64,000 nt of DNA from an uncultured Methanosarcinales archaeon (GCA_964647565.1 CAZYIM010000001.1:84184-148183); one strand, 5' to 3'. Counted from the first letter of the stretch, positions 3,992 to 22,805 are shown. Program-made: numbers and translations. The notes: generated from the letters alone by a model not told the origin.

Positions 3992-4906
3992 ATGTATGAT
4001 CTGGTTGGTCTGACCAATGCTATCACAGACGTGGTTGTTGGGGTAAAGGAAAAGGATTTAACAAGGTTTGGTCTAAATAAAGGAGTCTATAATCGAAGAA
4101 GTGAAATCCCTTTTGATGAGATTCTCAAATTTATGTCTTTGAGTGATTCTGTATCCATTCCAGGAGGCTCGCCAGCCAATGTTGTGCACGGAGTTGCTAA
4201 ACTTGGTGGCAAGACAGCCCTCTTTGGCACTGTTGGCAAGGATAACTATGGCACCTTGTTCAGAGAGCATATTGTCAGTGCAGGAATAGATCCATTCATA
4301 AGAACAGTCGAGGGAAAAAGTGCGGTATGTTATATTCTAGTTACACCTGATGGAGAAAAGACCCCCTTTGCAGACCTTGGTGTTGCAAACCAGTTTGAAT
4401 ATACTAAGGAACTGATGGCAAATACAAAGATGTTTCACACTTCCGGCTATGAGCTGGTCAACAATCCAGAGAAGACTAGGGAGCTAATTGAATATGCATT
4501 GTCAAGAGGCGCCATTTTGAGCTATGACCTGGCAGCGCCCATTGAGATTGCAAAAGAGAGGAAACAGGTAGAGGATTTATTGGCTGAGGTTGATGTGCTC
4601 TTTTCTACAGAGGAAGAATGCACAGAGATAATGGAGATGGAGCTTGAGTATGCAGAGGCACAATTAGCAGATATTGTACCGGTCCTGGCCTTGAAAAGAG
4701 GTGCAAGGGGATCCACTGTCTATAAAGGCGGGAATAAACAGGACATACCTATAGTTGATGTGAGGATTATAAACAGAAACGGTGCTGGCGATGGCTATGC
4801 AGCTGGTTTCCTGAGCGAATATCTCAAAGGCTCAGATGTTGAAACTTGCGGCAAGAAAGGCAGTGAATATGCTGCGTATGTTTGTTCTAGAGTGCAGCCG
4901 TTTTAA
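3992..4906 (+). CDS. PfkB family carbohydrate/adenosine kinase
   Basis: PGGSPAN, G.VGKD.YG, NGAGDGYAAG signature. Confidence 0.92.
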   Translation: MYDLVGLTNAITDVVVGVKEKDLTRFGLNKGVYNRRSEIPFDEILKFMSLSDSVSIPGGSPANVVHGVAKLGGKTALFGTVGKDNYGTLFREHIVSAGIDPFIRTVEGKSAVCYILVTPDGEKTPFADLGVANQFEYTKELMANTKMFHTSGYELVNNPEKTRELIEYALSRGAILSYDLAAPIEIAKERKQVEDLLAEVDVLFSTEEECTEIMEMELEYAEAQLADIVPVLALKRGARGSTVYKGGNKQDIPIVDVRIINRNGAGDGYAAGFLSEYLKGSDVETCGKKGSEYAAYVCSRVQPF

Positions 4907-7182
4907 GGGTAGGTTTCAGTCTTATGCAAGAAAAGTGAATCATAATCTTTAGCTAAACTTACATCATAATAGTGAAGACGCTCACCTAGCTCTTCAGGTC
5001 CAAAGAAATGTTTTGTCCCATCTGCTTTTGGAAAGGAAACTGCTATATTAAAATAGCTGCATACTGCCCTGAAGAGTTCTTCAGGATATCTGTCAAAAGA
5101 ACTTGTTCCCAAGCATTTCCCAAGATCATATTCACTCTGGTTATGGGTAACCCCGACGAGTTTTGTTTTGTTAATCCTGTCTTCATACATCTCGATCTTG
5201 AGTTTTGTGTACTGCAGCTTGAATTGGTCAATGCCTGCAGGAACAAGACCTGCTTCATGTGACAAGGGCTCCATTACAGTTACATTATCAGTGTCAAGGT
5301 ATGACTTGATCATTTCTGATGAATCATTGACATCCTTATAAGGCAGAACATAAACCTTACCACCTTCTTCAATATGTCTATCAAGATCTGGTTTCATGCA
5401 GAACTCATTGTACTGATACCATTCATTGTCTAGATGTGTTTTGGCCAGATCAGGATGCAAGATGATATAGGCTTCATATTTCCGGTCTGCAGGTTCTGTT
5501 TCGCCTGTAAGCATCTTTTCCTGGGTTATTGCTGTGATCTCAAGAGGTTTTATATCTTCAACGAACTTTTTACTTTTCATTTGTGCAATTCTACCCCTGA
5601 GTTCCGGCAAAGGGATGCCCATGTTGAATTCCAATAATCTCAATATGTTTCCACAAGCCTGATCATCCATTTTCTCGAAATACCAATATCTTGCGCCAGA
5701 TAAAACACCTAAAAGCACATCGTATTGATAAATTTCATCCAAAGTTTCAGGAGTGACAGTTTCCCCTTTTAGTTCATTCTGAGTGACCTTCAAAAGATGA
5801 GCTTTCCACTCTTCCTGATATGGCAGTAAGTTTTCCTCACCACCATGTTTATTATAATGACGTTCAGTTGTAACATCTTCACCACTATTTATCTTATCTA
5901 TATTATCTTGAGATTCTCTACTGTAAACATGACCATTTATCATTCCCCTGCTAGTGCATTCAAGATAATAATGTATGAAATCACTGCTTAAATTTTCATA
6001 ATAGTACCTTATCTTTCCTGCCACCTCAGGATTGAACTTGACAGCTGTATGGCCGATGTCTTCATAGACATAATGAAGGTCATTCCAATTGCCTAATTGG
6101 TCTACATTAAGCTGTGTTAATAAATAGTCAAGCAGGCCCATGCCAATCACTCTCTTTTGGTCTGGAGTGATCTTGTCTTTGATTTTGCTCATTCTAAAAT
6201 GCATTAATCTGAAATGGATGCTCAGTCCTTGATCGATATTATCAATAACCTTATGATAGATTTTTGTAGCTTCTTCGTCTACAGCACCAGTTTCATCAAG
6301 CACTTTTTCTTCCAGTGATTTTTTAAGAAGTTCTTTAACTGGATTTTTGGTTCCATACAGATGATAGAATGCGCCTATCGGCTCATTAGATCTTTTAACT
6401 ATGGCTTTTGTTTCTTGTTTGGGTATTTCTACGCCATATTGAGGGAACAAGGATAATGATTCATCTGACAATGCCCTGAAATCATAAATGCCAAGCCATC
6501 TGTCCCAGAGTGAGCTTTGCCCTCTGTGATCAAAAAAGCCTGGAATCTGTCTTTTTACCAGTTCCTCATAGAACTTGATATATCTGTCATCAAACTTCTT
6601 GATATCCAATGGCTCCAGCTTAACTGATGCTCTCAATGGATTGAATGTAGTAGGTAATAGTAAAAGATTGACTCCATAATAATCCTTCAGCTCATCTGGA
6701 AGCAGATTATATTCTGGAACTTTTAATAGGGTTTTTTTAAGGTTTCTAGCAGAAATATCTGGGTTGGTCCAGGTCTTGCCCTTTTTTTCCAAGATGCCTG
6801 ATTCAAGAAGAGCTCGAGGGATATTACTGGAGATTTCTGTGGCAGCTGTGTCCAATTCATTAAAAGTCTTGAATTCACCTGAATATCCTTGAAAAGATTT
6901 GAAGAGTGATGTTGCAATAGCAAGATATATTGGAAATTTGAAATCTGGTAGAAGAATGCCAGGAATCCTATTAAGCCCTTGAGCAAGTTTCCTTATCCTA
7001 TCCAGCTTGCTCTTATACTCACCTTTTTGAAATTTGTTGTAAGCCCAGTCAACTTCTTGATCCAGGCCAAAGAATCCAAAGTCCGGCGGTGTATCTGCTG
7101 GGAAAAACAGTTCCTGACCATCTTTATCAAGGGCAATGTTCCTAAGATCTGGAACGTCCGAATTCCTTTTTACAGGTAGCAT
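4903..7182 (-). CDS. Large hypothetical protein (~759 aa)
   Basis: Long ORF; start moved to ATG 7182 because the minus-strand TATA (7207-7214) lies inside the longer GTG ORF; no family recognised. Confidence 0.7.
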   Translation of the reverse strand: MLPVKRNSDVPDLRNIALDKDGQELFFPADTPPDFGFFGLDQEVDWAYNKFQKGEYKSKLDRIRKLAQGLNRIPGILLPDFKFPIYLAIATSLFKSFQGYSGEFKTFNELDTAATEISSNIPRALLESGILEKKGKTWTNPDISARNLKKTLLKVPEYNLLPDELKDYYGVNLLLLPTTFNPLRASVKLEPLDIKKFDDRYIKFYEELVKRQIPGFFDHRGQSSLWDRWLGIYDFRALSDESLSLFPQYGVEIPKQETKAIVKRSNEPIGAFYHLYGTKNPVKELLKKSLEEKVLDETGAVDEEATKIYHKVIDNIDQGLSIHFRLMHFRMSKIKDKITPDQKRVIGMGLLDYLLTQLNVDQLGNWNDLHYVYEDIGHTAVKFNPEVAGKIRYYYENLSSDFIHYYLECTSRGMINGHVYSRESQDNIDKINSGEDVTTERHYNKHGGEENLLPYQEEWKAHLLKVTQNELKGETVTPETLDEIYQYDVLLGVLSGARYWYFEKMDDQACGNILRLLEFNMGIPLPELRGRIAQMKSKKFVEDIKPLEITAITQEKMLTGETEPADRKYEAYIILHPDLAKTHLDNEWYQYNEFCMKPDLDRHIEEGGKVYVLPYKDVNDSSEMIKSYLDTDNVTVMEPLSHEAGLVPAGIDQFKLQYTKLKIEMYEDRINKTKLVGVTHNQSEYDLGKCLGTSSFDRYPEELFRAVCSYFNIAVSFPKADGTKHFFGPEELGERLHYYDVSLAKDYDSLFLHKTETYP

Positions 7183-7224
7183 ATATGCAGAAAAACACAC
7201 TTCCTCTTTATAAAGGTTTTGATT

Positions 7225-7248
7225 TTTTACCACTAATGGGTGATAAAA
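7225..7248. promoter_or_regulatory. Best copy of palindromic promoter-proximal motif TTTTACCACT-N4-AGTGATAAAA
   Basis: TTTTACCACT-AATG-GGTGATAAAA, 10 nt from TATA 7207-7214; further copies listed in findings. Confidence 0.7.
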
Positions 7249-7249
7249 C

Positions 7250-7930
7250 TCAAAGCCTGTTTGTCTTTAAATACCATTCCTTGCGGAACTGGATTAAGAA
7301 GGATCTCATAAATGTATGACGATCTTCTGCAAGCTTATGCGCAGTCTCTGTATTCATGTTATCCTTTAATTTCAGCAGTTTATCATAGAAATGATGTATT
7401 GCAGATGGTTCTGCAGCATCATGCTCATCATATGTTGCTTTTTCCTGTACCAGATCAGGATTCCAAAGAGCCATCTTGTGTGCCCCTGCATAGGAAAAAG
7501 CCCTTGAAACGCCTATAGCCCCTAATGCATCAAGGTTGTCTGCGTCCTGAACAATCAAAGTGTTGATGTCAGTGACCTGGTTGCCTTTTTTAGAGAATGA
7601 ATAGTTCTCGTGATGTTCTATGCAGTAAAGGATCATTTTTTGCTTATCCAATGGCATCCTGCACTCATCCAGAATAATCTTGGCTTCACCTAAAGATTCC
7701 TTGGGAGAAACATATTGTTCCCTGTCAACAGACATGAACCTGTGCAGGTCATGGATAGAAAGGGCAGTACCGATCACCAATCTGTCGCCACCTTCACGCT
7801 CCTGTATATAAAGGCCTAGATCTCGTGCTCTCTTGTGATGGTAGAGATCATGATCAGGCGAAAAACAATCAGTATACAACTCCATATGCTTGTCCAGAAT
7901 CATGAATAATTGTTCAAGCTGCTCTTCCAT
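7250..7930 (-). CDS. HD-domain phosphohydrolase (YedJ-like)
   Basis: HD..H, IHDL, EHH, QDADNLDALGAIGVSR, HFYDKLL, A..RH. Confidence 0.9.
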   Translation of the reverse strand: MEEQLEQLFMILDKHMELYTDCFSPDHDLYHHKRARDLGLYIQEREGGDRLVIGTALSIHDLHRFMSVDREQYVSPKESLGEAKIILDECRMPLDKQKMILYCIEHHENYSFSKKGNQVTDINTLIVQDADNLDALGAIGVSRAFSYAGAHKMALWNPDLVQEKATYDEHDAAEPSAIHHFYDKLLKLKDNMNTETAHKLAEDRHTFMRSFLIQFRKEWYLKTNRL

Positions 7931-8393
7931 AAGATTGGGAAAAATTAACTAGTTTATAATCCTTTCTTTTAAGGCGGACATACATCCTCTCGTAAGGGAA
8001 TTGTTTGGTTCCAAAGCCATGCTCATCCCTAAGATAGAGTGCCCTGTTTGAGTCAAAAGCCACCTTGAAATGCGGTGTTTTCTGAGCCCATATAGACTCA
8101 TAGCAGCTTGGTCCAAAATGTATGAATTCGACAAGATGATCTTTCTGCCATTTCCGTTCCATATGGCAGTATTCTAATACGCTTGGTTTTCCCCAGTCCG
8201 GTTGTATATCGTCCTTGAAAAGATCATCAGAAGTGGATGATTTACCTTTTCTCGAATAGAATTCTAATTTCGTTCCCTTGGGTTCAAACAGCTGTTTAAG
8301 TTGTTCTTCAAAAGCCAGGAAGTTATCATACATAAGATCATAAGGTTCCATTGAATTAACTAGTTCTACCAATTGATTGTGGTTAAGAGACAT
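7914..8393 (-). CDS. Hypothetical protein
   Basis: 159-aa ORF overlapping the HD gene start. Confidence 0.6.
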   Translation of the reverse strand: MSLNHNQLVELVNSMEPYDLMYDNFLAFEEQLKQLFEPKGTKLEFYSRKGKSSTSDDLFKDDIQPDWGKPSVLEYCHMERKWQKDHLVEFIHFGPSCYESIWAQKTPHFKVAFDSNRALYLRDEHGFGTKQFPYERMYVRLKRKDYKLVNFSQSYGRAA

Positions 8394-8466: not shown

Positions 8467-8991
8467 ATGAACGTAAAAGAAGCTATTGAAAAAAGAAGGA
8501 GTATTAGGAAGTATGATGACAAAGAGGTTACCGAAGAGGTTTTAAGGGAGCTTATCGACGCTGCTAGACTGGCGCCGTCAGGCAACAATGCCCAGCCATG
8601 GTATTTCAAGATAGTTACCAGTGCAGAGGACAAAAAGAAACTGAAGGATAGTAATATGTATCCGCAGGACTTTGTCTATACTGCACCAGTGCTTATTATT
8701 TGTTGTGCAGATCCAAGCGTCTATCCTGCTGGCGAATTCATCAAGGGCATGGATCATCCAAACCAGGTAAGGGCCATAAGGGACCTGTCGTTGGCTTGCG
8801 AGAATTTAGTGTTAAGAGCTGTTGAGCTTGGACTTGGCACCTGCTATATTGGATGGATGGACAAGGAAAAGGTCAAGGATCTGCTGGATATACCAAAGGA
8901 TTACATTGTTCCCTACACAATAACTGTAGGCTATCCTGCTGGTGGAGCCGGTGAGCCAAAGAAGAAGAGTGCTGACGATATTTTACTTTAG
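8467..8991 (+). CDS. Nitroreductase family protein
   Basis: RRSIRKY, APSGNNAQPW, GLGTCYIG, TVGYP. Confidence 0.93.
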   Translation: MNVKEAIEKRRSIRKYDDKEVTEEVLRELIDAARLAPSGNNAQPWYFKIVTSAEDKKKLKDSNMYPQDFVYTAPVLIICCADPSVYPAGEFIKGMDHPNQVRAIRDLSLACENLVLRAVELGLGTCYIGWMDKEKVKDLLDIPKDYIVPYTITVGYPAGGAGEPKKKSADDILL

Positions 8992-9013: not shown

Positions 9014-9481
9014 ATGCAAGAGCTATACATAGATGATATTATTGAGAAGACTAAGAAATTAAGCAAAGAGAAGAAGCATAAGAAGACAAAATTCTATAAC
9101 TTAATTGGTGAAGTCGTGCCTGATGAATGCCACATCCATCTTTCTACCAAAGAATGCACTATAATCATATTTGACGAAAAAAAACAGAGCTACACGAAAG
9201 CAGCAGTAGATTATAAATCAGGATCATATCAAGGTAGAACAATTCTCCCGACAGATGAAATTTTCAGTCTCGATAACTATAAAGCTACCTCCTCAATTAT
9301 TCCAAGCTATTGCTTTAATTATCCTTCTAATAAATGGACTGTTGGCCCGTTTATTCTGTTTGTAAAAAAAATATTCACACACAATCACTCTCCTGTTGCT
9401 GAAATCGGACAGTTGATAGATAAAGATTATCCTGTAAAGTATTACGCACCAAGAACAGATAAGATACCAACAATAGAATAA
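9014..9481 (+). CDS. IPTIE-array paralogue 1 (unknown function)
   Basis: MQELYIDD...RTDKIPTIE; homologous to next six ORFs. Confidence 0.85.
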   Translation: MQELYIDDIIEKTKKLSKEKKHKKTKFYNLIGEVVPDECHIHLSTKECTIIIFDEKKQSYTKAAVDYKSGSYQGRTILPTDEIFSLDNYKATSSIIPSYCFNYPSNKWTVGPFILFVKKIFTHNHSPVAEIGQLIDKDYPVKYYAPRTDKIPTIE

Positions 9482-9483
9482 AA

Positions 9484-9936
9484 ATGCAAGAGCTATACAT
9501 AGATGATGTGATTGAGAAAGCACATGATCTAGAAAAACAAAAGAAGTATAAGAAAAAGATTTTCACAGAACGTCTCTTGGCTTTGATGCCAAAAAAAGGT
9601 CACATAGTACTCAGCGGCAAGAGGGGAGATATCATCATTTATGATCAGAAAAGCCAGTCCTATAGAAAAGCTTTATTTGATATCGAAGACGGCAATCCGA
9701 TTGCAGGAAACCAACTTTTTGAGATCGAAGATTACAAACCGTCCATACCAATAACTAATGAATACTTGATGGATGAGTTAACCACTGCTAAAGAAGCTGC
9801 AAATTTTATTTGTTTTTTAATAGGATTACATGACAAATACAAATCTCCAGTCATTGAGTTCGGCAGGAGAGCAAACAGATATTTTCCTATAAAGGCTTAC
9901 TCTCAAAGAACAGACAGGATACCAACAATAGAATAA
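9484..9936 (+). CDS. IPTIE-array paralogue 2
   Basis: MQELYIDD...RTDRIPTIE. Confidence 0.85.
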   Translation: MQELYIDDVIEKAHDLEKQKKYKKKIFTERLLALMPKKGHIVLSGKRGDIIIYDQKSQSYRKALFDIEDGNPIAGNQLFEIEDYKPSIPITNEYLMDELTTAKEAANFICFLIGLHDKYKSPVIEFGRRANRYFPIKAYSQRTDRIPTIE

Positions 9937-9938
9937 AA

Positions 9939-10430
9939 ATGGAAATACCAACAATAGATGACTGGCTGGAAAAAGCAGATCAATTAAGCCAAAAGAAAAA
10001 ATATAAGAACAAAAACCTAGTTGAGAGACTGGGCAATATAATGCCTAAAAAAGGTAAGTTTTACCTGTCCGGTAAGCAAGGCACTGTCATATATTTTAAT
10101 ATTCCAAGTGAGAGCTATAAGCAAGCCATCCTGGGATTCAGTAATAAACAAGAGGCCCAGTTCGAATATAATTTAGAATATATCTTTCCGGGAGAAAAAT
10201 CATTCAGTCTTGAAGGCTATAAAGCAACAATTCCAATAACCAACAAAGAATTTTTTTATTATCCCTATAAGTCAGAAGAAAAGCACAATGGTGCTCAATT
10301 CCTTTATTTTATCCTTAAGTTGTTCAAGGAGTACAAATCACCAATCATGCAGATAGGACAAAAAAAGAACAGGTTCTATCCGTTCCAGTTCTACGGCCCA
10401 AGAAAAGACAAGATACCAACAATAGAATAA
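9939..10430 (+). CDS. IPTIE-array paralogue 3
   Basis: MEIPTIDD...RKDKIPTIE. Confidence 0.85.
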   Translation: MEIPTIDDWLEKADQLSQKKKYKNKNLVERLGNIMPKKGKFYLSGKQGTVIYFNIPSESYKQAILGFSNKQEAQFEYNLEYIFPGEKSFSLEGYKATIPITNKEFFYYPYKSEEKHNGAQFLYFILKLFKEYKSPIMQIGQKKNRFYPFQFYGPRKDKIPTIE

Positions 10431-10432
10431 AA

Positions 10433-10924
10433 ATGGAAATACCAACAATAGATGATTACATTGAAAAAGCAGAAGACCTTAAAAAAGAGAAAAGGTACAA
10501 GAAGATGGGAATATGGCAGAGACTTTGCTATGTAATGCCTAAAAAGGGCAAGTGCCATCTGTCTGGAAAGCACGGCACTGTAATCATCTATGACGAAGAA
10601 AGCCAGAGCTACAGGGATGCTATCTTATTTCATTTTGATAAACCAGAAGAATCATATAATTATAGATCACAGTATTTCCTTGCAGGAGAAAAGACCTTTA
10701 GTTTGGAAGGTTATAAGATAGATACTCCAATTATAAATAGAGAAGAAAGGGGGACTCCTAGTGAAGAAAATGTAAACAAATCTGTAGTGCATTTCCTCTA
10801 TTTCTTCCTTAATTTGTTTGAGGAGTTCAAATCACCTGTCATGCAGATAGGCCAGTTTGAGAACCGGTTTTTCCCCTTCCAATTCTACTCATTACGTACA
10901 GATAAGATACCGACAATAGAATGA
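10433..10924 (+). CDS. IPTIE-array paralogue 4
   Basis: MEIPTIDD...RTDKIPTIE. Confidence 0.85.
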   Translation: MEIPTIDDYIEKAEDLKKEKRYKKMGIWQRLCYVMPKKGKCHLSGKHGTVIIYDEESQSYRDAILFHFDKPEESYNYRSQYFLAGEKTFSLEGYKIDTPIINREERGTPSEENVNKSVVHFLYFFLNLFEEFKSPVMQIGQFENRFFPFQFYSLRTDKIPTIE

Positions 10925-10943
10925 AAATATATAAGGTGATAAA

Positions 10944-11516
10944 ATGCAACAAGCAATATTAAACGATTTTTATATGTTAATCATAGACCTGTCAGCAAAA
11001 GCAGAAGAAGAAAAGGAAAACAAGCCCAAGGGAAAAAAACAGCTAGGTTTTAAGTTTCTGAATAAGAAAGATGTTTCAAAATCTGAGACTAACGAAATTT
11101 CCAATAAGATTGATGAGCTGCTAAAAAATAAGAAATTTCTGCTAAAGACTGATTGGGTAACTTATGTTATAGCAGACGAAGAAACAAAGACCTATAGAAT
11201 TGCAGAATTTGACACAATCAAAGGCCAGCCATGCCCTTCAGGACATTTGGTCAATATGAATGATTACAAGCCGGATACAGAGATGTTTATCACAGGTTTC
11301 CCTTGTTCAGAATATCGAAAGGATGGCGGTCCAAAGAATAGGGAGTCAAATACATTAAATTTTTTCGAATCACTTTTAAAGATGCACAGAGCTGAGATTA
11401 TAGAGATAGGAACAAATGAGACATTAGTGTCTACCCAAGCAATAAAAAAAAGATTCTATCCTATGAAATTCTATGGTCAAAGAACAGACAGGATACCAAC
11501 AATAGAGGAGATCTAA
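10944..11516 (+). CDS. IPTIE-array paralogue 5 (longer N-terminus)
   Basis: Ends RTDRIPTIEEI; SD-like AGGTGA upstream. Confidence 0.85.
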   Translation: MQQAILNDFYMLIIDLSAKAEEEKENKPKGKKQLGFKFLNKKDVSKSETNEISNKIDELLKNKKFLLKTDWVTYVIADEETKTYRIAEFDTIKGQPCPSGHLVNMNDYKPDTEMFITGFPCSEYRKDGGPKNRESNTLNFFESLLKMHRAEIIEIGTNETLVSTQAIKKRFYPMKFYGQRTDRIPTIEEI

Positions 11517-12007
11517 TGAAAATGGAAGAACTATATATTGATGATGTGATTGAAAGGGCAAGAAAACTTCAAAAAGATAAGAAGATGAAGAAGAAAACAG
11601 TAGCGCAGCTTATACAGTCTGTATTGCCAACAGAAGGCCATCTCTATCTGTCAGGAGAGCTTGGGACTGTGATTATTTTCGACGATGAAAACAAGATCTA
11701 TAAAGAGGCTGTCTTGGATGTTCGAAAATGCCAACCACTTCCCGGCAATAAGATATTTAGTCTTGCTAATCACAAGTCCAACTCTCCTATAGAGACTGCT
11801 TATTATGATGCAGCAGGAAATTGGGGATATGATGATAAAGATCGCAGGTTACACGCCACAAGTCTAATATTATCCCTAAGGAAAGCACAACATGATTACG
11901 ACGGCCAGGTTATGGAATTTAGCCGGACCATTGGTGACAGTCATAATAGGCAGATATTATTCAAGACTTACATCCTAGACACAGGCAAGATACCAACAAT
12001 AGAATGA
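11516..12007 (+). CDS. IPTIE-array paralogue 6
   Basis: MEELYIDD...DTGKIPTIE. Confidence 0.85.
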   Translation: MKMEELYIDDVIERARKLQKDKKMKKKTVAQLIQSVLPTEGHLYLSGELGTVIIFDDENKIYKEAVLDVRKCQPLPGNKIFSLANHKSNSPIETAYYDAAGNWGYDDKDRRLHATSLILSLRKAQHDYDGQVMEFSRTIGDSHNRQILFKTYILDTGKIPTIE

Positions 12008-12573
12008 AAACACTTAAGATGGCAAAAATCAATCAGATCTATGGTTCATTGCTCGGATACAAGACAGGAAAGAAGTATCTGGAAAAGGATATCTCAGAGA
12101 TTAAATCACTTGACGATCTTTCAGATATGTCAGTTAAAATGTTCAACCAGAGAAAATTTCGTAAAAAGAAGATCAATAAAATCATGGAGATCTTGGTCCC
12201 AAAAGAAGAGGAGCTGCTGTTGAGCTGGAACGGTTCGACAATCATAATGTATGATAAAGAGCGAAAGAACATGTACACTGCTGCTCTTAATGTCGAGAGA
12301 TGTTGGCCATTGGTCACTGATCAGGTTGTAAACCTTGGCAATCATAGCCCCATCTCAGAGTTGAGCACTGAGATGTTCAAATGCAAGGATAGTATTATCG
12401 CAGGTTCCAATCATAAGAACTCTGTAAGATATGTCTTGAAACTGATGAACATAATGAAAAGATATAATGCTCCGTTCATCCAGATAAATGATCACAAGGG
12501 AGATAATTTTTATAGGCGTTTTGCAAGCAAGGCATATTATCTCAACACAGATAGGATTCCGACAATAGAATAG
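12004..12573 (+). CDS. IPTIE-array paralogue 7 (longer N-terminus)
   Basis: Ends NTDRIPTIE; ATGA overlap with paralogue 6. Confidence 0.85.
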   Translation: MKTLKMAKINQIYGSLLGYKTGKKYLEKDISEIKSLDDLSDMSVKMFNQRKFRKKKINKIMEILVPKEEELLLSWNGSTIIMYDKERKNMYTAALNVERCWPLVTDQVVNLGNHSPISELSTEMFKCKDSIIAGSNHKNSVRYVLKLMNIMKRYNAPFIQINDHKGDNFYRRFASKAYYLNTDRIPTIE

Positions 12574-12579
12574 GCGTAT

Positions 12580-13482
12580 TTAAGGCTGCACTGTTATCTC
12601 AGTCTTGACAGATGGGGTGGGGACTCTTATTGAAGGAGACAGGATTTTTTGTTTATAGGGTTTTGGTGGTATGGATGCAGAAAGATACCATTTTAGGTTA
12701 AAATTCTCACCAAATGTTGTTGGAACGACATCTGAAGGTATTCTTGTATCGATTGACACCGAGATCTGATCTTCTTCCTGCGGGATGTCCAGAACCTGCT
12801 TTATGGTGTCTAGGGTTGTATCATTATGATAGCCTTTTGCAACTGCACGTTCAACTGAATATAATTGCAGATGCAATTTGCTGTTGTGGGTTTTGGCCCT
12901 GTCTGTAATTTGTACTTTACCAGATATATTATCTCCACGATTAAATGCAGTCTTTTCGAGAATCAATTGGATCTCAAGATCTTTTGAAGTATAGGGTATT
13001 GGATAAAACTTATTGCGTTCTTCTTCTGGCTCATCTTGTTTCTTTTTTGGGGGAGGTTCCCTTTGTATAGTTATGCCAGAAACATCGACAAGATCAATTC
13101 GAAGAGGAATATCTGCTCGTGTTTTTAACTCATAACTTACAGATGCTTTTTTACCCTTATAGCTGGGAGTTATCTTTTCAGGCAGTTGGATTGAGAAATC
13201 TATCATGTGCACCCCTCTCTTAAAAAGCACATATTGATTCCACTCACCATTCTGGCGCTTCTTTACCACTGCTTCGAAAAGATTCATCCGAGTTGCCCAG
13301 ACCTCATTGATTTCCTTGTGTGTAGAACCTGTATAGATCTCTGTGATTTCTGTTCCTGTAAGCTTAAGGTCCAAATCCCTGATCATAAGTCTGTTGTTGA
13401 CATCGAACATCAATTGACCTGTTACACAGTCATTTGGAAGATATTCTTTCTTCTCAAGCAGTATCTCAAGTTTGTTTGCCAT
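12580..13482 (-). CDS. Arrestin-fold / Spo0M-like protein (two beta-sandwich modules)
   Basis: Internal duplication LEILLEKKEYLPNDCVTG / IQLILEKTAFNRGDNISG, L.G.E, FSIQLP...PSY.G...V.Y.L. Confidence 0.65.
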   Translation of the reverse strand: MANKLEILLEKKEYLPNDCVTGQLMFDVNNRLMIRDLDLKLTGTEITEIYTGSTHKEINEVWATRMNLFEAVVKKRQNGEWNQYVLFKRGVHMIDFSIQLPEKITPSYKGKKASVSYELKTRADIPLRIDLVDVSGITIQREPPPKKKQDEPEEERNKFYPIPYTSKDLEIQLILEKTAFNRGDNISGKVQITDRAKTHNSKLHLQLYSVERAVAKGYHNDTTLDTIKQVLDIPQEEDQISVSIDTRIPSDVVPTTFGENFNLKWYLSASIPPKPYKQKILSPSIRVPTPSVKTEITVQP

Positions 13483-13543
13483 GCTTAAAATAGAATGCGC
13501 TATAATTTAAATAAGTTTCTATCATAACCACTCAAAAGTAACA

Positions 13544-14326
13544 CTAAATCTCCTTTAACAACAGCTCTTCAGCAAGATGCAAGATGAACCTTAGGCTGTC
13601 CTTGAGCTTCTTTGTGTGCCACTTGGGAGCCCACTCCAACTCTGCGATGATGTCGCTGATGGCAAAGACAGAAGCCAATTCTACTTTGCGGTATTTTGCA
13701 ACTGCAAACAATGCAGAAGCCTCCATCTCAACAGTAAGCACTCCATCTTTTTTATACTGCAGCGTCTCATCAATAGTCTCCCTGTAAGGCGCATCTATTG
13801 TCCAACTGGTACCGCAGATGAACTTTTTCTTTTTTTCTTTTAGAAGTGTTTTTACTTTTTCAGTGAACTCTTTATCAGGAAACGCATATTTAGAAGGCTT
13901 GATATAGTGGTAAGAGGTCCCTTCATCTCTAATTGCTCTTTCACAGACAATGATATCACCTGCCTTCAGATTGGATTGAAGGCCGCCAGCAGCACCAATG
14001 GACATGAACTTTTTCACACCTAAAGCAATGAACTCTTCAAATACTGCAGACGCAACAGGAGCACCAATACCAAACCTGCCAACCGCAGCAATCTTTTTCC
14101 TTCTGCCTGGAAGATAACAAACTGTCGCACCAAATGCCTTGGTCTTCTTCACGCCCTTGAGTTTGCATATGTAGTTCATCAGGTTCCTGTCATAGCAAAG
14201 GATGACAGCTTCAGGAACCTTTAACAAGGCAAGTCTCAGGTCTATCTTCTTGTAATAGTTGACAAACTGTTTAGGCTCCAGAGTAGATTTTTTCAGATGT
14301 TTATCCTTGAAGTTTGGATACGCCAT
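13544..14326 (-). CDS. Nucleoside phosphorylase (PNP/UDP family 1)
   Basis: GIGAP, G.AGGL, RDEGTSYHY, WTIDAPYRET, VEMEASA, ISD. Confidence 0.92.
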   Translation of the reverse strand: MAYPNFKDKHLKKSTLEPKQFVNYYKKIDLRLALLKVPEAVILCYDRNLMNYICKLKGVKKTKAFGATVCYLPGRRKKIAAVGRFGIGAPVASAVFEEFIALGVKKFMSIGAAGGLQSNLKAGDIIVCERAIRDEGTSYHYIKPSKYAFPDKEFTEKVKTLLKEKKKKFICGTSWTIDAPYRETIDETLQYKKDGVLTVEMEASALFAVAKYRKVELASVFAISDIIAELEWAPKWHTKKLKDSLRFILHLAEELLLKEI

Positions 14327-14384
14327 TGCTCAGAAGGATTTTATTCTCTTAATAAAGTTTTTCAGAATTAGCAATAGCTCCTAG

Positions 14385-14996
14385 CTAGAGATCTTGATAG
14401 TTATGTTTTTCTCTCAGCATATCGATAGCAGAATCAACATGTTCAACAATAGAATCGTATGTTTTCCTGGAAAGGCCGATATTTGGAAAACCGTAGATGT
14501 CCTTTATGACAGAACAATCAGGCTGTTCATGCTTTTTCATCCTCGAATACATGATCCAGAGCCACTTCACCTTTTTAGGATCATTGACTTTTATTATCTC
14601 CCGAATCTCTTCATAATCATGCGCCCCACCTTGATAGAACCTGTTCTCTAGTTGGGAGCAGATAGCATCCACAGCGCCTGCTTTCATGGCATCTGTATCT
14701 GCATGATCATTGGGCTTGTTGAACATCTGATGATGATACTGGTTAATCTGATGGCACTCGATGGAGGGAAGCACATATTTCTCAAAGAAATCATGATTAT
14801 GGCTTCTGTACTGCATTGAAAGACCCTCTATTACAGGCCAGCTGAGCTTGCTGCCCTTGCCATCCAGATCATGAGGCCTCTGCGGATCACGGATACCGAC
14901 ATCCAGATGTTCGTAAAAGAACTCAACTCTGCATGAATGTTTAATTGTCTGCAAAATCCAGCTCCTTACTTCGTTTGTGCTAGGCTTTATAACCAT
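14385..14996 (-). CDS. Hypothetical protein, possible HD-like metal site
   Basis: H...HD...SKL...H..NQYHH...D pattern; start at MVIKP. Confidence 0.55.
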   Translation of the reverse strand: MVIKPSTNEVRSWILQTIKHSCRVEFFYEHLDVGIRDPQRPHDLDGKGSKLSWPVIEGLSMQYRSHNHDFFEKYVLPSIECHQINQYHHQMFNKPNDHADTDAMKAGAVDAICSQLENRFYQGGAHDYEEIREIIKVNDPKKVKWLWIMYSRMKKHEQPDCSVIKDIYGFPNIGLSRKTYDSIVEHVDSAIDMLREKHNYQDL

Positions 14997-15082
14997 ATGG
15001 GAAGGGAATATGATCTTAATTAAAGGTTTTTCGAAAAAATTAAGATAAATATATAAGTATAAACCCATTTCAATTTTCCAGT

Positions 15083-15469
15083 GTGTTAAAGACCAAATCA
15101 ATATTGGTTGAGCCAGATGAAGGGGATGGCTTGAGGATATGTGTAATGCGGAGTCTTCAGGGACTGAATCGAGTCAGAAGAAAATATAATATCCATTATG
15201 ATATGCATTTTAAATCGTTGGCACCATCAAAGGAATTGATGCAGCAATATGTTAAAGAAAAGAGCATTTCTTGGCAGGATTATGTTAATAGATACCATGC
15301 AGAAGTGCTTAAACTGCAGTTTGATCTGATACATCTGATATCACATATAGCTTTAGAAAAAGATATTACTCTACTATGTTCTGAACGTGAACCTAAATAC
15401 TGCCATAGGAAATTGCTTGCTGAAGAATGCAAGATATACAGGCCTGACCTGGAGGTGATTGTAAAATGA
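15083..15469 (+). CDS. DUF488/YeaO-like protein
   Basis: DGLRICVMR, LAPSKEL, ITLLCSE...CHR. Confidence 0.8.
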   Translation: MLKTKSILVEPDEGDGLRICVMRSLQGLNRVRRKYNIHYDMHFKSLAPSKELMQQYVKEKSISWQDYVNRYHAEVLKLQFDLIHLISHIALEKDITLLCSEREPKYCHRKLLAEECKIYRPDLEVIVK

Positions 15470-16116
15470 AACTTAAGAATGTAAATTTTGAAAACATGAG
15501 CGATCTCGGCTATGTACTGAGAAGACCGATGGATAACATCAAGTTCCCAGGGGCTAATGAAATGGTTAAGATCATGGAAAATGTTGAGCAGAAGATCACA
15601 GTGCATCTCTATTCTGTCTGGGGAGCGCGGAAAAGAAAGAGGCTTCAGGATTTTGACAACGACGTAAAGGCACAATTATACATAGCCATTGACAATGACC
15701 GGATCTATGCTGGCAGGGGAAGCGGTACTGGAAGCGGCACAAGAGAAGAACACAACCGCTTTATTGACGCTTTTCTTTCAAGGCCAGATTTACAGAAGGA
15801 TGTTCCGACAGCAATTTTAATAACAGGCTGGGGGAAGCACCTTGGATATTATTTCTATGAGCATTATGCATACCAGGATAATGTAATTGGATTCAACTGG
15901 GATATCAACTCAGATATTTCGATAAGAGACGCCCTAAAAGAGGCCAACTTACCCCGTTCATACACAGACTATTCTATTAACAAGAGCATATTCCGTAACA
16001 CAACCATCTTCTTTGAGAACAAGGGCGAGAAGGTATTGGTCTATAAGGCGCTAAGAGAGGATATTGTGACTAGGAAGTTCGATAAGACCATAGCCAAGAT
16101 GAGAGAGAATCCTTAA
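15466..16116 (+). CDS. Hypothetical protein
   Basis: 216-aa ORF with ATGA overlap to DUF488 gene. Confidence 0.65.
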   Translation: MKLKNVNFENMSDLGYVLRRPMDNIKFPGANEMVKIMENVEQKITVHLYSVWGARKRKRLQDFDNDVKAQLYIAIDNDRIYAGRGSGTGSGTREEHNRFIDAFLSRPDLQKDVPTAILITGWGKHLGYYFYEHYAYQDNVIGFNWDINSDISIRDALKEANLPRSYTDYSINKSIFRNTTIFFENKGEKVLVYKALREDIVTRKFDKTIAKMRENP

Positions 16117-16187
16117 ACTAGTTAATTCTTTTGTAACAGCTTAAGCTGAAATCTGAAAAGGTTAGATTAGTTATTCTTTCTAAACAA

Positions 16188-16352
16188 GATGCAGAAAAAT
16201 CCTACTCCGCTCAACTCGCTTTGCTCGTTGAACTACGCCGCACCAGTTGCGTTTACTTTGTAAACGACAATCCTAACGGCACTGAGAAATTACTTCGTAA
16301 TTTCTGGTGTCTCGTTCGTATACTCGGAGACAGCAACGGCTTTTTCTGCATC
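16188..16352. repeat. 165-bp intergenic multi-hairpin element closed by a 12-bp inverted repeat
   Basis: GATGCAGAAAAA (16188-16199) / TTTTTCTGCATC (16341-16352) enclosing several triloop hairpins. Confidence 0.7.
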
Positions 16353-16368
16353 AAGGAAGGTGATATAA

Positions 16369-16761
16369 ATGACAGTGGATCAATATGTAACCCAAGACTA
16401 TCCAATTGAATGCAAAGGAAGGGATGCAAATATGCAGGAGGTGCTTGATGAGGCTTTAGAAGTTACAGTACATATACACAAGAGCCCTGGCAGCAGCATG
16501 ATATCAAGCAATGTTGACTGTCCATATAATGTTGGCGGCCATGGAGACAGGTGCAAAGCCTCGCATCCAGATGTGCACAAGATAGGCCGAGGCGTTGGCT
16601 GCCCATACAGCTTTGACATCCCATATGCGCTCGAGTACTATCCTGAAGAAGAAATAAAAGAAAGAGAAACACTTAAGGCACTGCCATTTCCAGTTAAAAC
16701 AGAGCTGATCAGATGCCTGCCCGATGCATGCCAGACTCGATATAGACTACTGACGGATTAG
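16369..16761 (+). CDS. Cys/His-rich hypothetical protein
   Basis: SD AGGTGA upstream; CPY..GGHGDRC..SH....GCPY motif. Confidence 0.6.
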   Translation: MTVDQYVTQDYPIECKGRDANMQEVLDEALEVTVHIHKSPGSSMISSNVDCPYNVGGHGDRCKASHPDVHKIGRGVGCPYSFDIPYALEYYPEEEIKERETLKALPFPVKTELIRCLPDACQTRYRLLTD

Positions 16762-17020
16762 CTACGATCTCTGGAAGCTTGTCATAGGATGTTTGGACAA
16801 AATAGAAATTATCTAAAGCAGTTGTCTGCCCGGGAAATTTAAGATTATGCTTGCCAGGTTTTGCCTTGATGGACGCATTAAAATACATTCTTCTCACATC
16901 CACCTGCCCTATTTCCAGACCAACACCTTCGACCATTCCGTGGAAGGTATGGTTTATGTGAGCATCAACCTTATCACTTTCTAATGCTTCCAATACACTA
17001 TCATTTATTATACTATCCAT
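16709..17020 (-). CDS. Hypothetical protein
   Basis: SD AGGTGG upstream on minus strand. Confidence 0.55.
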   Translation of the reverse strand: MDSIINDSVLEALESDKVDAHINHTFHGMVEGVGLEIGQVDVRRMYFNASIKAKPGKHNLKFPGQTTALDNFYFVQTSYDKLPEIVANPSVVYIESGMHRAGI

Positions 17021-17072
17021 ATTACCACCTGAAAAACTGAGAAAAAATAATTATATTTAAATCCTTTGGAAA

Positions 17073-17504
17073 TCAATAGTTTTTCTTAAGAAAAGTAGGA
17101 GATATTTGTTTCCTTTCAGATACTACCGGAATAATGCCATTTTTTTCAAAATCCTGCTTGATTGCAACAGTGATTAATGTTTTTTGCATTCTTTCGCCAT
17201 AAACCAATCCGCAATTTATACCTACCTCAATTGGTTTATTGTCCTTATGGACACAGACAGTAGCTGTCGAATTTTGTAGATTAAGCCTTGTAGAATGATA
17301 GACAGTCATTTTTTCCCCATCAACAATATATGGCAAAGAAGTATTTATGTGGCGAGGTGAAACAATCTCTGTGTGTTCCATACCTAAAGCATTTCTGACA
17401 GTGGCATCAATATCGTCTGGATCGCCGTCTGCCCATGCAATAAATGCAGCTCTCATGCCGCCATTATCAAGCGGTTGGTAATGTACTAATTTTTCATCAA
17501 TCAT
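17073..17504 (-). CDS. Hypothetical protein
   Basis: Leaderless-type promoter (TATA 17525-17532). Confidence 0.6.
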   Translation of the reverse strand: MIDEKLVHYQPLDNGGMRAAFIAWADGDPDDIDATVRNALGMEHTEIVSPRHINTSLPYIVDGEKMTVYHSTRLNLQNSTATVCVHKDNKPIEVGINCGLVYGERMQKTLITVAIKQDFEKNGIIPVVSERKQISPTFLKKNY

Positions 17505-17615
17505 ATGTACTAGAAAAAAATGTCTTTATAAAGTTTGCGATTTTTTACCACTCATCAATGATAATAATTTCTGTGAACGGATAAATATTAATAAATAAAG
17601 AAAAAAAAGAGAAAA

Positions 17616-18302
17616 TTAAATGAGACCAACATCAGACAGTTGTTTCCACTCAGGATCTTTCATTTCTTCTGGAAGGTTATTATAACCAAGTACACGCTTC
17701 TCGATGACCAGGTTCTTACCCGTCTGGTTCCATCGATCATACCCGCCAACAAGTTCGGTCAGCTTAGGTTCTAAAAGTACAGGCACGACATCATTGTAAT
17801 CAGCACTATCAGACTTTCCAACACCCTGCGAATATGCTTGTGCAAGGGTTCCTACAACCCTATCAACAACTTCTGCAGGAAGTGCTTTATCTGCGTAAAC
17901 ATTGCATGATTTTTCCATAAAATATCTTGTACCATTTGGCGATTCCCTTTGACCACTCCATTCAGGTGCAAGAATGGTTATTTTTGCACCATATTCAGGC
18001 AGCTCAAATGAAACACTCTGAGACCAGATAGAACCATCTTCTGTTTTCACATTAAAAGAACTTACCTCAAGTGGTTTAAGCTCCCCTTTCTTAAAACCAA
18101 GGGTATCCCTGCTCGTTATTTGATTAACAACAGTCTGCAACAGAATCCCTGCAACCTGACGAGTATTCATTATCACGTTCAAGTCATCTATGCTCTTAAC
18201 ATCTTCTTTCGAATATTGGATTGGAAAGTCTTCATTCAAAGGGATTCTCATTTCAGGCAGATTCCTAAAATCTAATTTTTTTTTCATAAAGAGATTAACC
18301 AT
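17616..18302 (-). CDS. Hypothetical protein
   Basis: SD GAGGTGA and TATA 18357-18364 upstream. Confidence 0.65.
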   Translation of the reverse strand: MVNLFMKKKLDFRNLPEMRIPLNEDFPIQYSKEDVKSIDDLNVIMNTRQVAGILLQTVVNQITSRDTLGFKKGELKPLEVSSFNVKTEDGSIWSQSVSFELPEYGAKITILAPEWSGQRESPNGTRYFMEKSCNVYADKALPAEVVDRVVGTLAQAYSQGVGKSDSADYNDVVPVLLEPKLTELVGGYDRWNQTGKNLVIEKRVLGYNNLPEEMKDPEWKQLSDVGLI

Positions 18303-18397: not shown

Positions 18398-19063
18398 TTA
18401 CTCGAACTCTATCGCACCCTTGAGAAAGACACCTTTGTCCAATCTAACAGGCCTCCATTTGTCAAGAATCAGCTTGGCATCAAGCCAGTCTGCGAGCTCC
18501 TGCGGATTGCCTATAGTGGCAGAAAGTGCAACCAGTTGAAGTTTGGGAAGCAACTGCCTCAATAATGTCATGACCACTTCCAGAGTAGGCCCTCTTCCAT
18601 GATCGTTCAGCAAATGCACTTCATCGATAACAACCACTTTTAAGTTCTGGATCCATGCAGCCTTGTGTCTCATCAACGAATCCAGTTTCTCACTTGTTGC
18701 AATAATCAGGTCATAGTTCTTCAGGTATGAATCTGCGCTGTCAATATCTCCAGAGCTGATAGCCACCTTGAAATCCTTGCCATATAATCTCTGGAATTCT
18801 TTGTACTTTTCAGATGCCAAAGCTCTCAATGGTACAACATAGACTGCCTTGCCTTTATCGTGATAGATTGCATTAAGGATCGCTAGCTCTGCAACCAATG
18901 TCTTGCCTGATGCAGTCGGCGTGCAGACAACCAGGTTCTTGTCCTTGAATAATCCTGCATTAATGGATTTAGTCTGGCAAGGCCTCAGAGTCTTAAAGCC
19001 TCTCTTGGAAAGAACAGAGTATATCTTAGCAGGTATCTTTTTTTTATACTTTGAGAGCTGCAT
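18398..19063 (-). CDS. Ski2/Hel308-like helicase, N-terminal RecA-like domain only
   Basis: Q-motif LRPCQ, PTASGKT, PLRALASEK, DEVH, LSAT, WRPV; stops at 221 aa. Confidence 0.85.
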   Translation of the reverse strand: MQLSKYKKKIPAKIYSVLSKRGFKTLRPCQTKSINAGLFKDKNLVVCTPTASGKTLVAELAILNAIYHDKGKAVYVVPLRALASEKYKEFQRLYGKDFKVAISSGDIDSADSYLKNYDLIIATSEKLDSLMRHKAAWIQNLKVVVIDEVHLLNDHGRGPTLEVVMTLLRQLLPKLQLVALSATIGNPQELADWLDAKLILDKWRPVRLDKGVFLKGAIEFE

Positions 19064-22573: not shown

Positions 22574-22648
22574 TAATTATTTTTTATTTTTTTTAATTTT
22601 TTTCTTAATCAAAAGTTTTTTAACCATATCCTGCTTCTTAACACTCAC

Positions 22649-22744
22649 GCCAAGGTCGCATAATCCGGTATTGCGGCGGTCTCGAACAATCTTTCGAGCT
22701 AACCGCTCCCTTGGGGATTCTCGGTTCGAATCCGAGCCTTGGCG
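22649..22744 (+). tRNA. tRNA-Ser(CGA) with 14-nt intron (22687-22700) at position 37/38
   Basis: Acceptor GCCAAGG/CCTTGGC plus G73; anticodon stem GCGGT/ACCGC, anticodon CGA 22683-22685; long variable arm; T-loop TTCGAAT; BHB with CTCG/CGAG central helix; CCA not encoded. Confidence 0.93.
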
Positions 22745-22805
22745 TAACGAAGTGAAGTCAAGCTCGGGCCCAGCAACTCTGTTGCTCGTGTCCGAGCCTT
22801 GGCGT
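22731..22805 (+). repeat. 15-bp direct repeat of tRNA 3' end
   Basis: TCCGAGCCTTGGCGT at 22731-22745 and 22791-22805. Confidence 0.85.

Follow-up and report, generated by a model that had tools for sequence, protein, structure and literature searches.

Short C-terminal docking peptides are known from several systems, among them the cargo-loading peptides of encapsulins and the ClpX-binding tail of SspB, the PIP box follows the pattern Qxx(L/I/M)xx(F/Y)(F/Y) at the C-terminus, and polymorphic-toxin and bacteriocin loci hold tandem arrays of diverged immunity genes. Here we analyze a locus that can be compared with all of these: positions 9014-12573 (+ strand) of a 64,000-nucleotide (nt) stretch of DNA, one strand (hereafter "the window," meaning the whole stretch analyzed), from an uncultured Methanosarcinales archaeon (GCA_964647565.1 CAZYIM010000001.1:84184-148183), where seven head-to-tail open reading frames (ORFs) on the + strand encode soluble proteins of 150-190 amino acids (aa) that share the tail IPTIE. 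The Hsp70 peptide GPTIEEVD is bound by dicarboxylate-clamp TPR domains, and the ligand motif of the clamp is a C-terminal EEVD-COOH with the terminal Asp carboxylates held by the clamp (PMC5641545). The array tail has PTIE in common with the Hsp70 peptide (PTIEE in copy 5), a four-residue match that could easily be due to chance, and, unlike the Hsp70 ligands of TPR clamps, the array tails end in IPTIE or IPTIEEI, with neither EEVD nor a terminal Asp. The host DnaK itself ends in ...KKEDKK, the host genome yields six TPR matches (one over cut-off), and nothing else ties TPR clamps to the tail.

More generally, the array tail resembles C-terminal docking peptides in being short, flexible, acidic/hydrophobic and constant on otherwise different proteins. 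It does not correspond to a PIP box, as TD(K/R)IPTIE has neither the Gln nor the aromatic pair, and a search for an encapsulin shell gene gave no PF04454 match in the host genome, which at 86.9% completeness does not prove absence. Immunity-gene arrays and this locus are alike in being head-to-tail, small, cytoplasmic, fast-diverging and patchily distributed; unlike them, the present array has no adjacent toxin gene and no match to an immunity family of Pfam or PADLOC, and it has an invariant tail. To our knowledge, the immunity arrays described so far do not share an invariant C-terminal tag. The locus also differs from TOMM/SagB-type loci for ribosomally synthesized and post-translationally modified peptides (RiPPs), since SagB stays under its cut-off, no cyclodehydratase is found nearby, and the would-be "precursors" are folded proteins of 150-190 aa, whereas such loci have short precursors rich in Cys, Ser or Thr.

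The central observation is that a strongly diverged set of paralogues ends in a virtually unchanging peptide. Pairwise identity among the seven proteins is 20-54% (the closest pair being copies 3 and 4, with copies 5 and 7 drifted to 20-30%), and they can be aligned over their full length with nine invariant columns, five of which are the terminal I-P-T-I-E. We tentatively favor the reading that the seven are non-enzymatic dimerizing modules, each bearing a lineage-specific docking peptide for one shared partner. One gene of a rare soluble alpha/beta family has expanded in situ into seven. Under this reading, the conserved IIYD, KPxxPI and NRYFPxxxY strands would form a two-fold symmetric dimer interface; the tail, leaving the last interface strand as a flexible short linear motif, would serve as the common docking peptide that brings the seven diverged modules, as dimers, to the shared partner; and a variable loop beside the interface would give each copy a different surface. 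The genes and the repeated junction are as follows.

8467..8991 (+): nitroreductase-family gene, 174 aa (PF00881, E 1.6e-32; PF14512, E 9.6e-21)
9014..9481 (+): paralogue 1, 155 aa, C-terminus RTDKIPTIE, with an AGGTGG Shine-Dalgarno-like site upstream
9464..9486 (+): junction word ATACCAACAATAGAATAAAAATG, 23 nt comprising tail, stop, 2-nt spacer and start, exact at 9464, 9919 and 10413
9484..9936 (+): paralogue 2, 150 aa, C-terminus RTDRIPTIE, without a Shine-Dalgarno-like site
9939..10430 (+): paralogue 3, 163 aa, N-terminus MEIPTIDD, C-terminus RKDKIPTIE, chain 1 of the predicted dimer
10433..10924 (+): paralogue 4, 163 aa, N-terminus MEIPTIDD, C-terminus RTDKIPTIE (tail codon CCG, synonymous), 19-nt spacer downstream; partner chain of paralogue 3 in the predicted dimer
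10944..11516 (+): paralogue 5, 190 aa, C-terminus RTDRIPTIEEI, with an AGGTGAT site upstream
11516..12007 (+): paralogue 6, 163 aa (161 aa from the second ATG, 11522), C-terminus DTGKIPTIE
12004..12573 (+): paralogue 7, 189 aa (extended N-terminally by ~30 aa), C-terminus NTDRIPTIE (tail codons ATT and CCG, both synonymous)

The ORF list and the PF00881 match thus bear out the initial annotation of this DNA, which had described seven abutting or overlapping ORFs of this size directly behind a nitroreductase. The nitroreductase gene stops 22 nt before the start of paralogue 1 on the same strand, paralogue 2 starts 2 nt past the stop of paralogue 1 (TAA AA ATG), and distances along the array are gaps of 2, 2, 2 and 19 nt, then overlaps of 1 and 4 nt, with no same-strand gene after paralogue 7. 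The nitroreductase gene is probably the first gene of a transcript shared with the array, so that it and the seven array genes would probably make up an eight-gene co-transcribed block, and a putative AT-rich, TATA-like stretch lies ~20-30 nt upstream of its ATG. Within the array, copies 1, 5 and 6 are preceded by AGGTGG, AGGTGAT and GAGGAGATC, respectively, as judged against the anti-Shine-Dalgarno sequence, and copies 2, 3, 4 and 7 have no such site, so that coupling must account for their translation; the seven array genes are probably translationally coupled. Paralogue 6 has two candidate ATG starts, 11516 and 11522, and it is 11522 that lines up with the heads (MEELYIDD) of the other copies.

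Alignment of the seven likewise upholds the shared motifs and the C-terminal IPTIE that had been described, with two extra residues in copy 5. IPTIE is the very C-terminus of all copies except this one (IPTIEEI), and six of the seven proteins end in Glu. The tail is preceded by (R/N/D)(T/K)(D/G)(K/R), a motif LSG..G..I.YD...Y..A is present, and IDD occurs near the N-terminus (more loosely in copies 5 and 7). A variable segment, a putative recognition module, had been placed at residues ~95-125; a peak of variability does lie in this part of the proteins, at consensus columns ~91-110, and corresponds to a surface loop with insertions and deletions and the lowest model confidence. The proteins are hydrophilic (grand average of hydropathy -0.5 to -0.75) and, as expected from the initial annotation, have no transmembrane helix, the Kyte-Doolittle hydropathy being at most 0.9 in every 19-residue window of all seven.

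The eight-residue TD(K/R)IPTIE occurs in the array alone and is under selection. Among the 16,237 stop-to-stop ORFs of at least 50 aa in the whole genome, an IPTIE C-terminus is found in these seven only, and a looser tail pattern adds two unrelated ORFs. At the nucleotide level, the 14-nt word ATACCAACAATAGA has eight occurrences in the window at up to one mismatch (0.03 expected), and its exact copies in the 2.68-Mb genome number seven, all inside the array. The inner 14-mer of the junction word is found further at 9945, 10439, 11493 and 11990, and at 10907 with one mismatch. Evolutionarily, the seven IPTIE coding stretches (7 x 15 nt) include four nucleotide differences (CCG twice, ATT and GAG), all of them synonymous, and the synonymous fraction of their coding sites is ~24%. 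That only synonymous change is seen where about a quarter of the sites are synonymous points to purifying selection on the peptide, so that the constant tail seen initially appears to be a genuine constant element. The ratio of non-synonymous to synonymous rates (dN/dS) has no power for the array as a whole, synonymous sites being saturated in all 21 pairs (dS at least 1.5 or undefined; proportion of synonymous differences 0.65-0.95).

Next to no residue is fixed across the family. One Leu and one Tyr are the sole invariant residues across 21 family members, and conserved polar residues are lacking, a pattern that speaks for a binding or structural protein rather than an enzyme. None of the seven proteins reached a curated-family cut-off or a significant E-value: the top match had E 0.026 in Pfam-A, where all stayed under gathering scores, 12.8 bits in NCBIfam, where the cut-off was 770, E 0.0025 in PHROGs, for a family without known function, and E 0.0097 in PADLOC. 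A sequence profile search against the PDB gave a best E of 0.053, the ESM Atlas held no usable match for the relative P0007 or for copy 4, and Pfam had no match for 17 relatives either. A full-text literature search for IPTIE, for a family without a searchable name, returned, among the papers listed, only unrelated word fragments and no printed description.

To place the family more broadly, we searched 1.84 billion (1.84e9) representative proteins with its profile, which resulted in 22 matches: six proteins of the window itself, one false positive and 15 remote relatives (E 1.6e-20 to 5.4e-4; length 91-245 aa). Five further relatives (P0023-25, P0027 and P0028) came from word-based searches; P0027 comes from genome G138, and the remaining relatives lie on short metagenomic contigs. 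Full-length relatives are 165-198 aa long, with the N-terminus x-(L/I/V)-T-I-D-D-I-(R/K)-x-Y-V-E-E-x-G-P-K and the common motifs LSG..TVIIYD, GQPxP, AAxFLE and PVxEIG...NRYFPxxxY, and they end 1-8 residues beyond the last conserved Tyr. The TD(K/R)IPTIE tail was present in none of the 15 remote relatives, the word-search relatives or the G138 pair described below. Two matches were set aside: P0019 (1486 aa, seven matched stretches), which might have been a fused multi-domain form, is an FN3-like repeat protein and thus the false positive, and P0009 (245 aa), which starts with a dihydroorotate-dehydrogenase-like part and, from a shared LFR on, reads exactly as P0008 does, probably reflects a chimeric contig or an artefact of gene calling rather than a natural fusion. 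A profile search without length limits revealed no true fused form.

Sampling of related genomes gave a similar picture. In three partly overlapping draws of 400 genomes (two from the order and one from the phylum, counts including the host, G000), one credible match was found besides the host, in G138, a member of the same order but of another family. There, two overlapping tandem genes (G138:C12, L010 513-1932; 247 and 228 aa) match the family profile with E-values of 2.2e-6 and 2.8e-11, and are very distant, with a longer N-terminal part and no tail. One of them is 46% identical to P0028, a 205-aa metagenome protein, and three of the four sampled genomes of G138's genus are without the family. 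No synteny links the window to the G138 locus, the 775-aa/721-aa and 158-aa/184-aa neighbours being unrelated. Matches in G029 (E 0.008) and G078 (E 9e-4) contain stops inside the match and were treated as spurious.

In a maximum-likelihood tree of 24 family members, the seven array proteins form one side of a branch (84/88; recovered in 84% of bootstrap trees), with long terminal branches, the P0007/23/24/8/10 group as their sister (97/96) and copies 3 and 4 as a sister pair (100/99). Copies 5 and 7 are the most divergent, copy 5 having a branch length of 1.84. The position of the seven on one side of a branch shows that the gene, rare to begin with, has expanded in situ, and the absence of the tail from all relatives indicates that it was gained in the host lineage. 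All seven family matches of the host genome are at the array locus, with none elsewhere, in line with the lineage-specific repertoire proposed in the initial annotation. The family is very rare and without a curated name, and its expansion is local. The host genome (2.68 Mb in 86 contigs) is the sole member of its genus and family in the genome collection, within an order of >100 families whose listed genomes measure 0.6-2.1 Mb; the window also encodes a thermosome subunit, a family B DNA polymerase and an archaeal-type IleRS. Many lineage-specific genes of small-genome, DPANN-type archaea are unexplained and orphan expansions among them are common, and although the family and, as it appears, its fold are undescribed, this locus may yet prove to be an ordinary case of such an expansion.

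Independent assemblies support the array as it stands. In two marine/seawater metagenome studies (four runs), Logan contigs cover it with 0 letters differing and bridge most junctions, which indicates that it is not an assembly artefact; the source sample may be among these runs. The Logan contigs, which drop rare variants, showed neither joints nor copy-number variants nor fused forms, and the eight runs listed for the array include no RNA run.

We next turn to structure. AlphaFold2 models of copy 1 (seven-row alignment; predicted local distance difference test, pLDDT, 83.7; predicted template modeling score, pTM, 0.76) and copy 4 (21-row alignment; pLDDT 88.6, pTM 0.82) have the same order of elements, namely a short N-terminal strand or bridge, two helices, a six-stranded meander, a long helix, two closing strands and an unstructured tail. 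Taking Foldseek E <= 1e-3 or Z of ~8 or more as the bar for a fold match (unmatched models usually reach Z 7-8), neither model comes close: the best Foldseek E-values against the PDB were 0.06 (copy 1) and 0.39 (copy 4), an exhaustive VIA-align comparison with 48,161 chains peaked at Z 4.2 and 3.0 with no chain at Z >= 5, and the best match among the predicted viral folds of BFVD had E 9.5e-3 and a TM-score of 0.23. The predicted fold thus appears unusually isolated, which is no proof that it is new. The initial annotation had pointed to a confident match with a characterized family, in which IPTIE would be an ordinary core strand, as a finding that would speak against it, and neither the sequence nor the structure searches produced one. 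The sole recurring structural neighbours of both models, over residues ~45-155, are YbjQ (DUF74), YdgH/BhsA/YahO (DUF1471) and RcsF (3qkb, 4evu, 2ma4, 2ma8, 2y1b, 9biy); these likenesses (Z 2.5-3.4; 3-12% identity over 63-75 residues) are well below a meaningful level, and the proteins concerned are bacterial periplasmic or stress proteins with no sequence signal to the array proteins. Matches of the copy 1 helices to helix-turn-helix-like proteins (IdeR, TetR, JetA; Z 2.5-4.2) were not reproduced with the copy 4 model and were dropped.

Co-folding of the adjacent copies 3 and 4 predicts a confident dimer. The interface score ipSAE was 0.76, 0.76 and 0.77, against 0.06 for the best control, at least 96% of the contacts were common between runs, and the partner pLDDT was at least 84; the mark applied, which 116 of 157 solved complexes reach but only 2 of 215 mismatched pairs, is a rough guide here because the alignments were self-made. 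The predicted interface is two-fold symmetric and involves residues 52-60, 95-104 and 138-150 of both chains (pairs 100-100, 148-148 and 150-150), that is, the end of the IIYD strand, the K-x-x-x-P-I strand and the last strand, G-Q-x-x-N-R-F-F-P-F-Q-F, which are the conserved motifs of the family. Conservation is somewhat higher at the interface than in the remaining columns (entropy 1.93 vs. 2.27, permutation p 0.025). As copies 3 and 4 are homologous, the prediction would extend to the whole family, homo- and heterodimers being both plausible, and the paralogues probably form both. The tail (155-163) and the N-terminus are outside the confident contacts, which does not show that they never touch.

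Several observations weigh against the docking interpretation. At identical residues, codons are identical in 83/105 cases (79%) in the tail vs. 423/925 (46%) elsewhere, with values also raised in the head (119/200) and the last block (73/129), and three joins have the exact 23-nt junction in common. Together, the excess of codon identity and the shared junctions imply that homogenization at the DNA level contributes, and selection on the protein may be weaker than it appears; the junctions are either homogenized or constrained as nucleic acid. Copy 5 extends beyond the Glu, which means that this position cannot require a free C-terminal carboxylate. The dimer is a model prediction for homologous chains from shallow, self-made alignments, and the conservation of its interface lends it little weight (11 of 131 circular shifts are as low). 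Most of the tail is modeled with only moderate confidence, and no tail contact in the complex is confident. Searches of genome, metagenome and viral contig collections with P0007 or an alignment of the closer relatives gave no confirmed locus of relatives, whose contigs are at most 2.5 kb.

The first of these observations also lead to a different account, which we judge unlikely overall but worth serious consideration: the tail could be invariant mainly as a DNA or RNA effect, through short-tract gene conversion or unequal crossing-over combined with termination-reinitiation coupling, and the peptide would have no binding role. Besides the codon identity of tail, head and last block, this fits the junction word, whose exact repetition at three joins includes the choice of stop and the spacer, the lack of a Shine-Dalgarno-like site of their own in copies 2, 3, 4 and 7, and the exact codon string ATA CCA ACA ATA GAA, which is found in five of the seven tails with a chance of ~0.009 per copy given genome codon usage. 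It would also accommodate the EEI extension of copy 5, which is encoded by GAG GAG ATC, in GAGGAGATC, and coincides with a GGAG that looks like the ribosome-binding site of copy 6 (stretch 11507-11524). However, copies 4 and 7 retain IPTIE without a coupled gene downstream, the former having after it a spacer of 19 nt that brings its own AGGTGAT site and the latter a convergent gene, and the deviations in copies 4 (CCG), 5 (GAG) and 7 (ATT and CCG) are all synonymous. Conversion alone would moreover leave unexplained how the tail originated and became fixed in every copy, including copies 5 and 7 at 20-30% identity. We keep the docking peptide as our preferred, if tentative, explanation. A repertoire for biological conflict, in which each copy would be an immunity-, antidote- or anti-virus decoy-like protein acting against one attacker variant, is a distinctly less likely alternative. 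The paralogues are tandem, strongly diverged, small and cytoplasmic, their family is sporadic (one credible match, G138, besides G000, and three-quarters of G138's sampled genus without it), array GC content is lower than usual for the window (0.36-0.37 vs. ~0.40), branches after duplication are long, and many neighbouring ORFs belong to no family, all of which would suit such a role. Against this, no toxin, nuclease or defence domain was detected in the eight neighbouring ORFs (4903-8393 and 12580-18302; Pfam, NCBIfam, PADLOC), no integrase or mobile-element gene was found among the scanned window ORFs (23 plus five neighbours), the same-strand upstream gene is a nitroreductase, and the PADLOC and PHROG matches of the seven are no better than noise, with no relatives on viral contigs.

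The resemblance between the two ends of some copies raises two further explanations. The initial annotation had noted that copies 3 and 4 begin with EIPTIDD (indeed, both begin MEIPTIDD) and took this as a hint of strand-swapping, head-to-tail assembly. In such an ordered hetero-oligomer of the seven, the C-terminal IPTIE would mimic the IPTIDD strand and insert in the next subunit, an arrangement that we regard as very improbable. It is compatible with the ancestral family N-terminus, x-(L/I/V)-T-I-D-D, which makes the tail resemble the first strand of the family, with the strand formed by residues 2-5 in the copy 1 model, and with the same exact 14-nt word at the head and tail of copies 3 and 4. 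In contrast, the multimer prediction of these adjacent copies yielded a symmetric (isologous) complex held through core strands, with no tail or N-terminal residue in confident contacts and hence no support for IPTIE insertion; the IPT head is confined to two of the seven copies, which are sister paralogues; and the head word is only 12 nt downstream of the preceding tail word, so that a local conversion would suffice and is the simpler explanation. If 26 nt were deleted between these words, the neighbours would become fused in frame (455 - 26 = 429 = 3 x 143). The tail may derive from the ancestral TIDD head of the family, but it is somewhat more likely that copies 3 and 4 go back to an ancestor whose head had been overwritten by the neighbouring tail, because a single local event in a single sister pair is then enough. 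A related idea, to which we give only slim chances, is that the seven build a defined hetero-oligomer of a new fold, in which the tail, copying the family's own N-terminal TIDD, would be a self-derived plug that docks in the N-terminal-strand site of another subunit or in a shared hub. Least probable of all is that the seven are substrates or carriers for C-terminal chemistry by the co-transcribed nitroreductase-fold flavoenzyme, in a RiPP- or carrier-like manner. RiPP loci typically carry several precursor genes in which a constant portion is combined with a variable one, a pattern that the array fits, as do the operon-like arrangement with the nitroreductase (22-nt gap, AGGTGG site) and the terminal Glu of six of the seven copies; yet the nitroreductase reaches no NCBIfam cut-off (SagB TIGR03605, 19.9 vs. 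78.4 bits), the seven are folded domains of 150-190 aa rather than short peptides, copy 5 ends in EEI, and no cyclodehydratase, ATP-grasp, protease or transporter gene is found beside the array.

If the tail is indeed a docking tag on combinatorially dimerizing modules, this would represent a new adaptor principle in archaea, and would explain why seven copies (3.5 kb) are maintained in a genome that is unusually large for its order. Should the tail instead be a self-derived plug, the locus would be an undescribed docking-tag system based on self-mimicry, with dimer combinatorics of up to 28 surfaces. Even if the tail were only a by-product of junction homogenization, the array would still show well, in a natural setting, how gene conversion and translational coupling shape the ends of proteins. 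In each case, it offers a tractable orphan example, with confident models, a predicted dimer and an invariant peptide usable as bait.

Around the array, a convergent gene begins 6 nt beyond paralogue 7 (12580-13482, - strand) and encodes a 300-aa protein with Arrestin_N (E 2e-14) and Arrestin_C (E 4.9e-12) matches and weaker ones to Rgp1 and Spo0M; arrestin-fold proteins are uncommon among small archaeal genomes. On the other side, a 776-aa ORF (4903-7233, - strand) has no Pfam, NCBIfam or PADLOC match, and together with unannotated ORFs at 7914-8393, 14385-15101, 15466-16116 and 17616-18302 makes this an orphan-rich stretch. Rfam gave nothing at gathering score across the whole window, and scans for sigma-70 promoters (16 vs. 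14.8 expected) and intrinsic terminators (4 vs. 3.0) stayed at shuffle level, with models that do not apply to archaea. Farther downstream, a 221-aa ORF (18398-19063, - strand) was seen to carry only a DEAD/ResIII N-terminal helicase domain (E 4.5e-36; no search for a C-terminal helicase domain was made) and may be a split or truncated gene. Lastly, ARAGORN reports a 98-nt transfer RNA (tRNA) at 22648-22745 (+ strand), of undetermined type and with a four-letter anticodon string (cgaa), which is probably an intron-containing archaeal tRNA.

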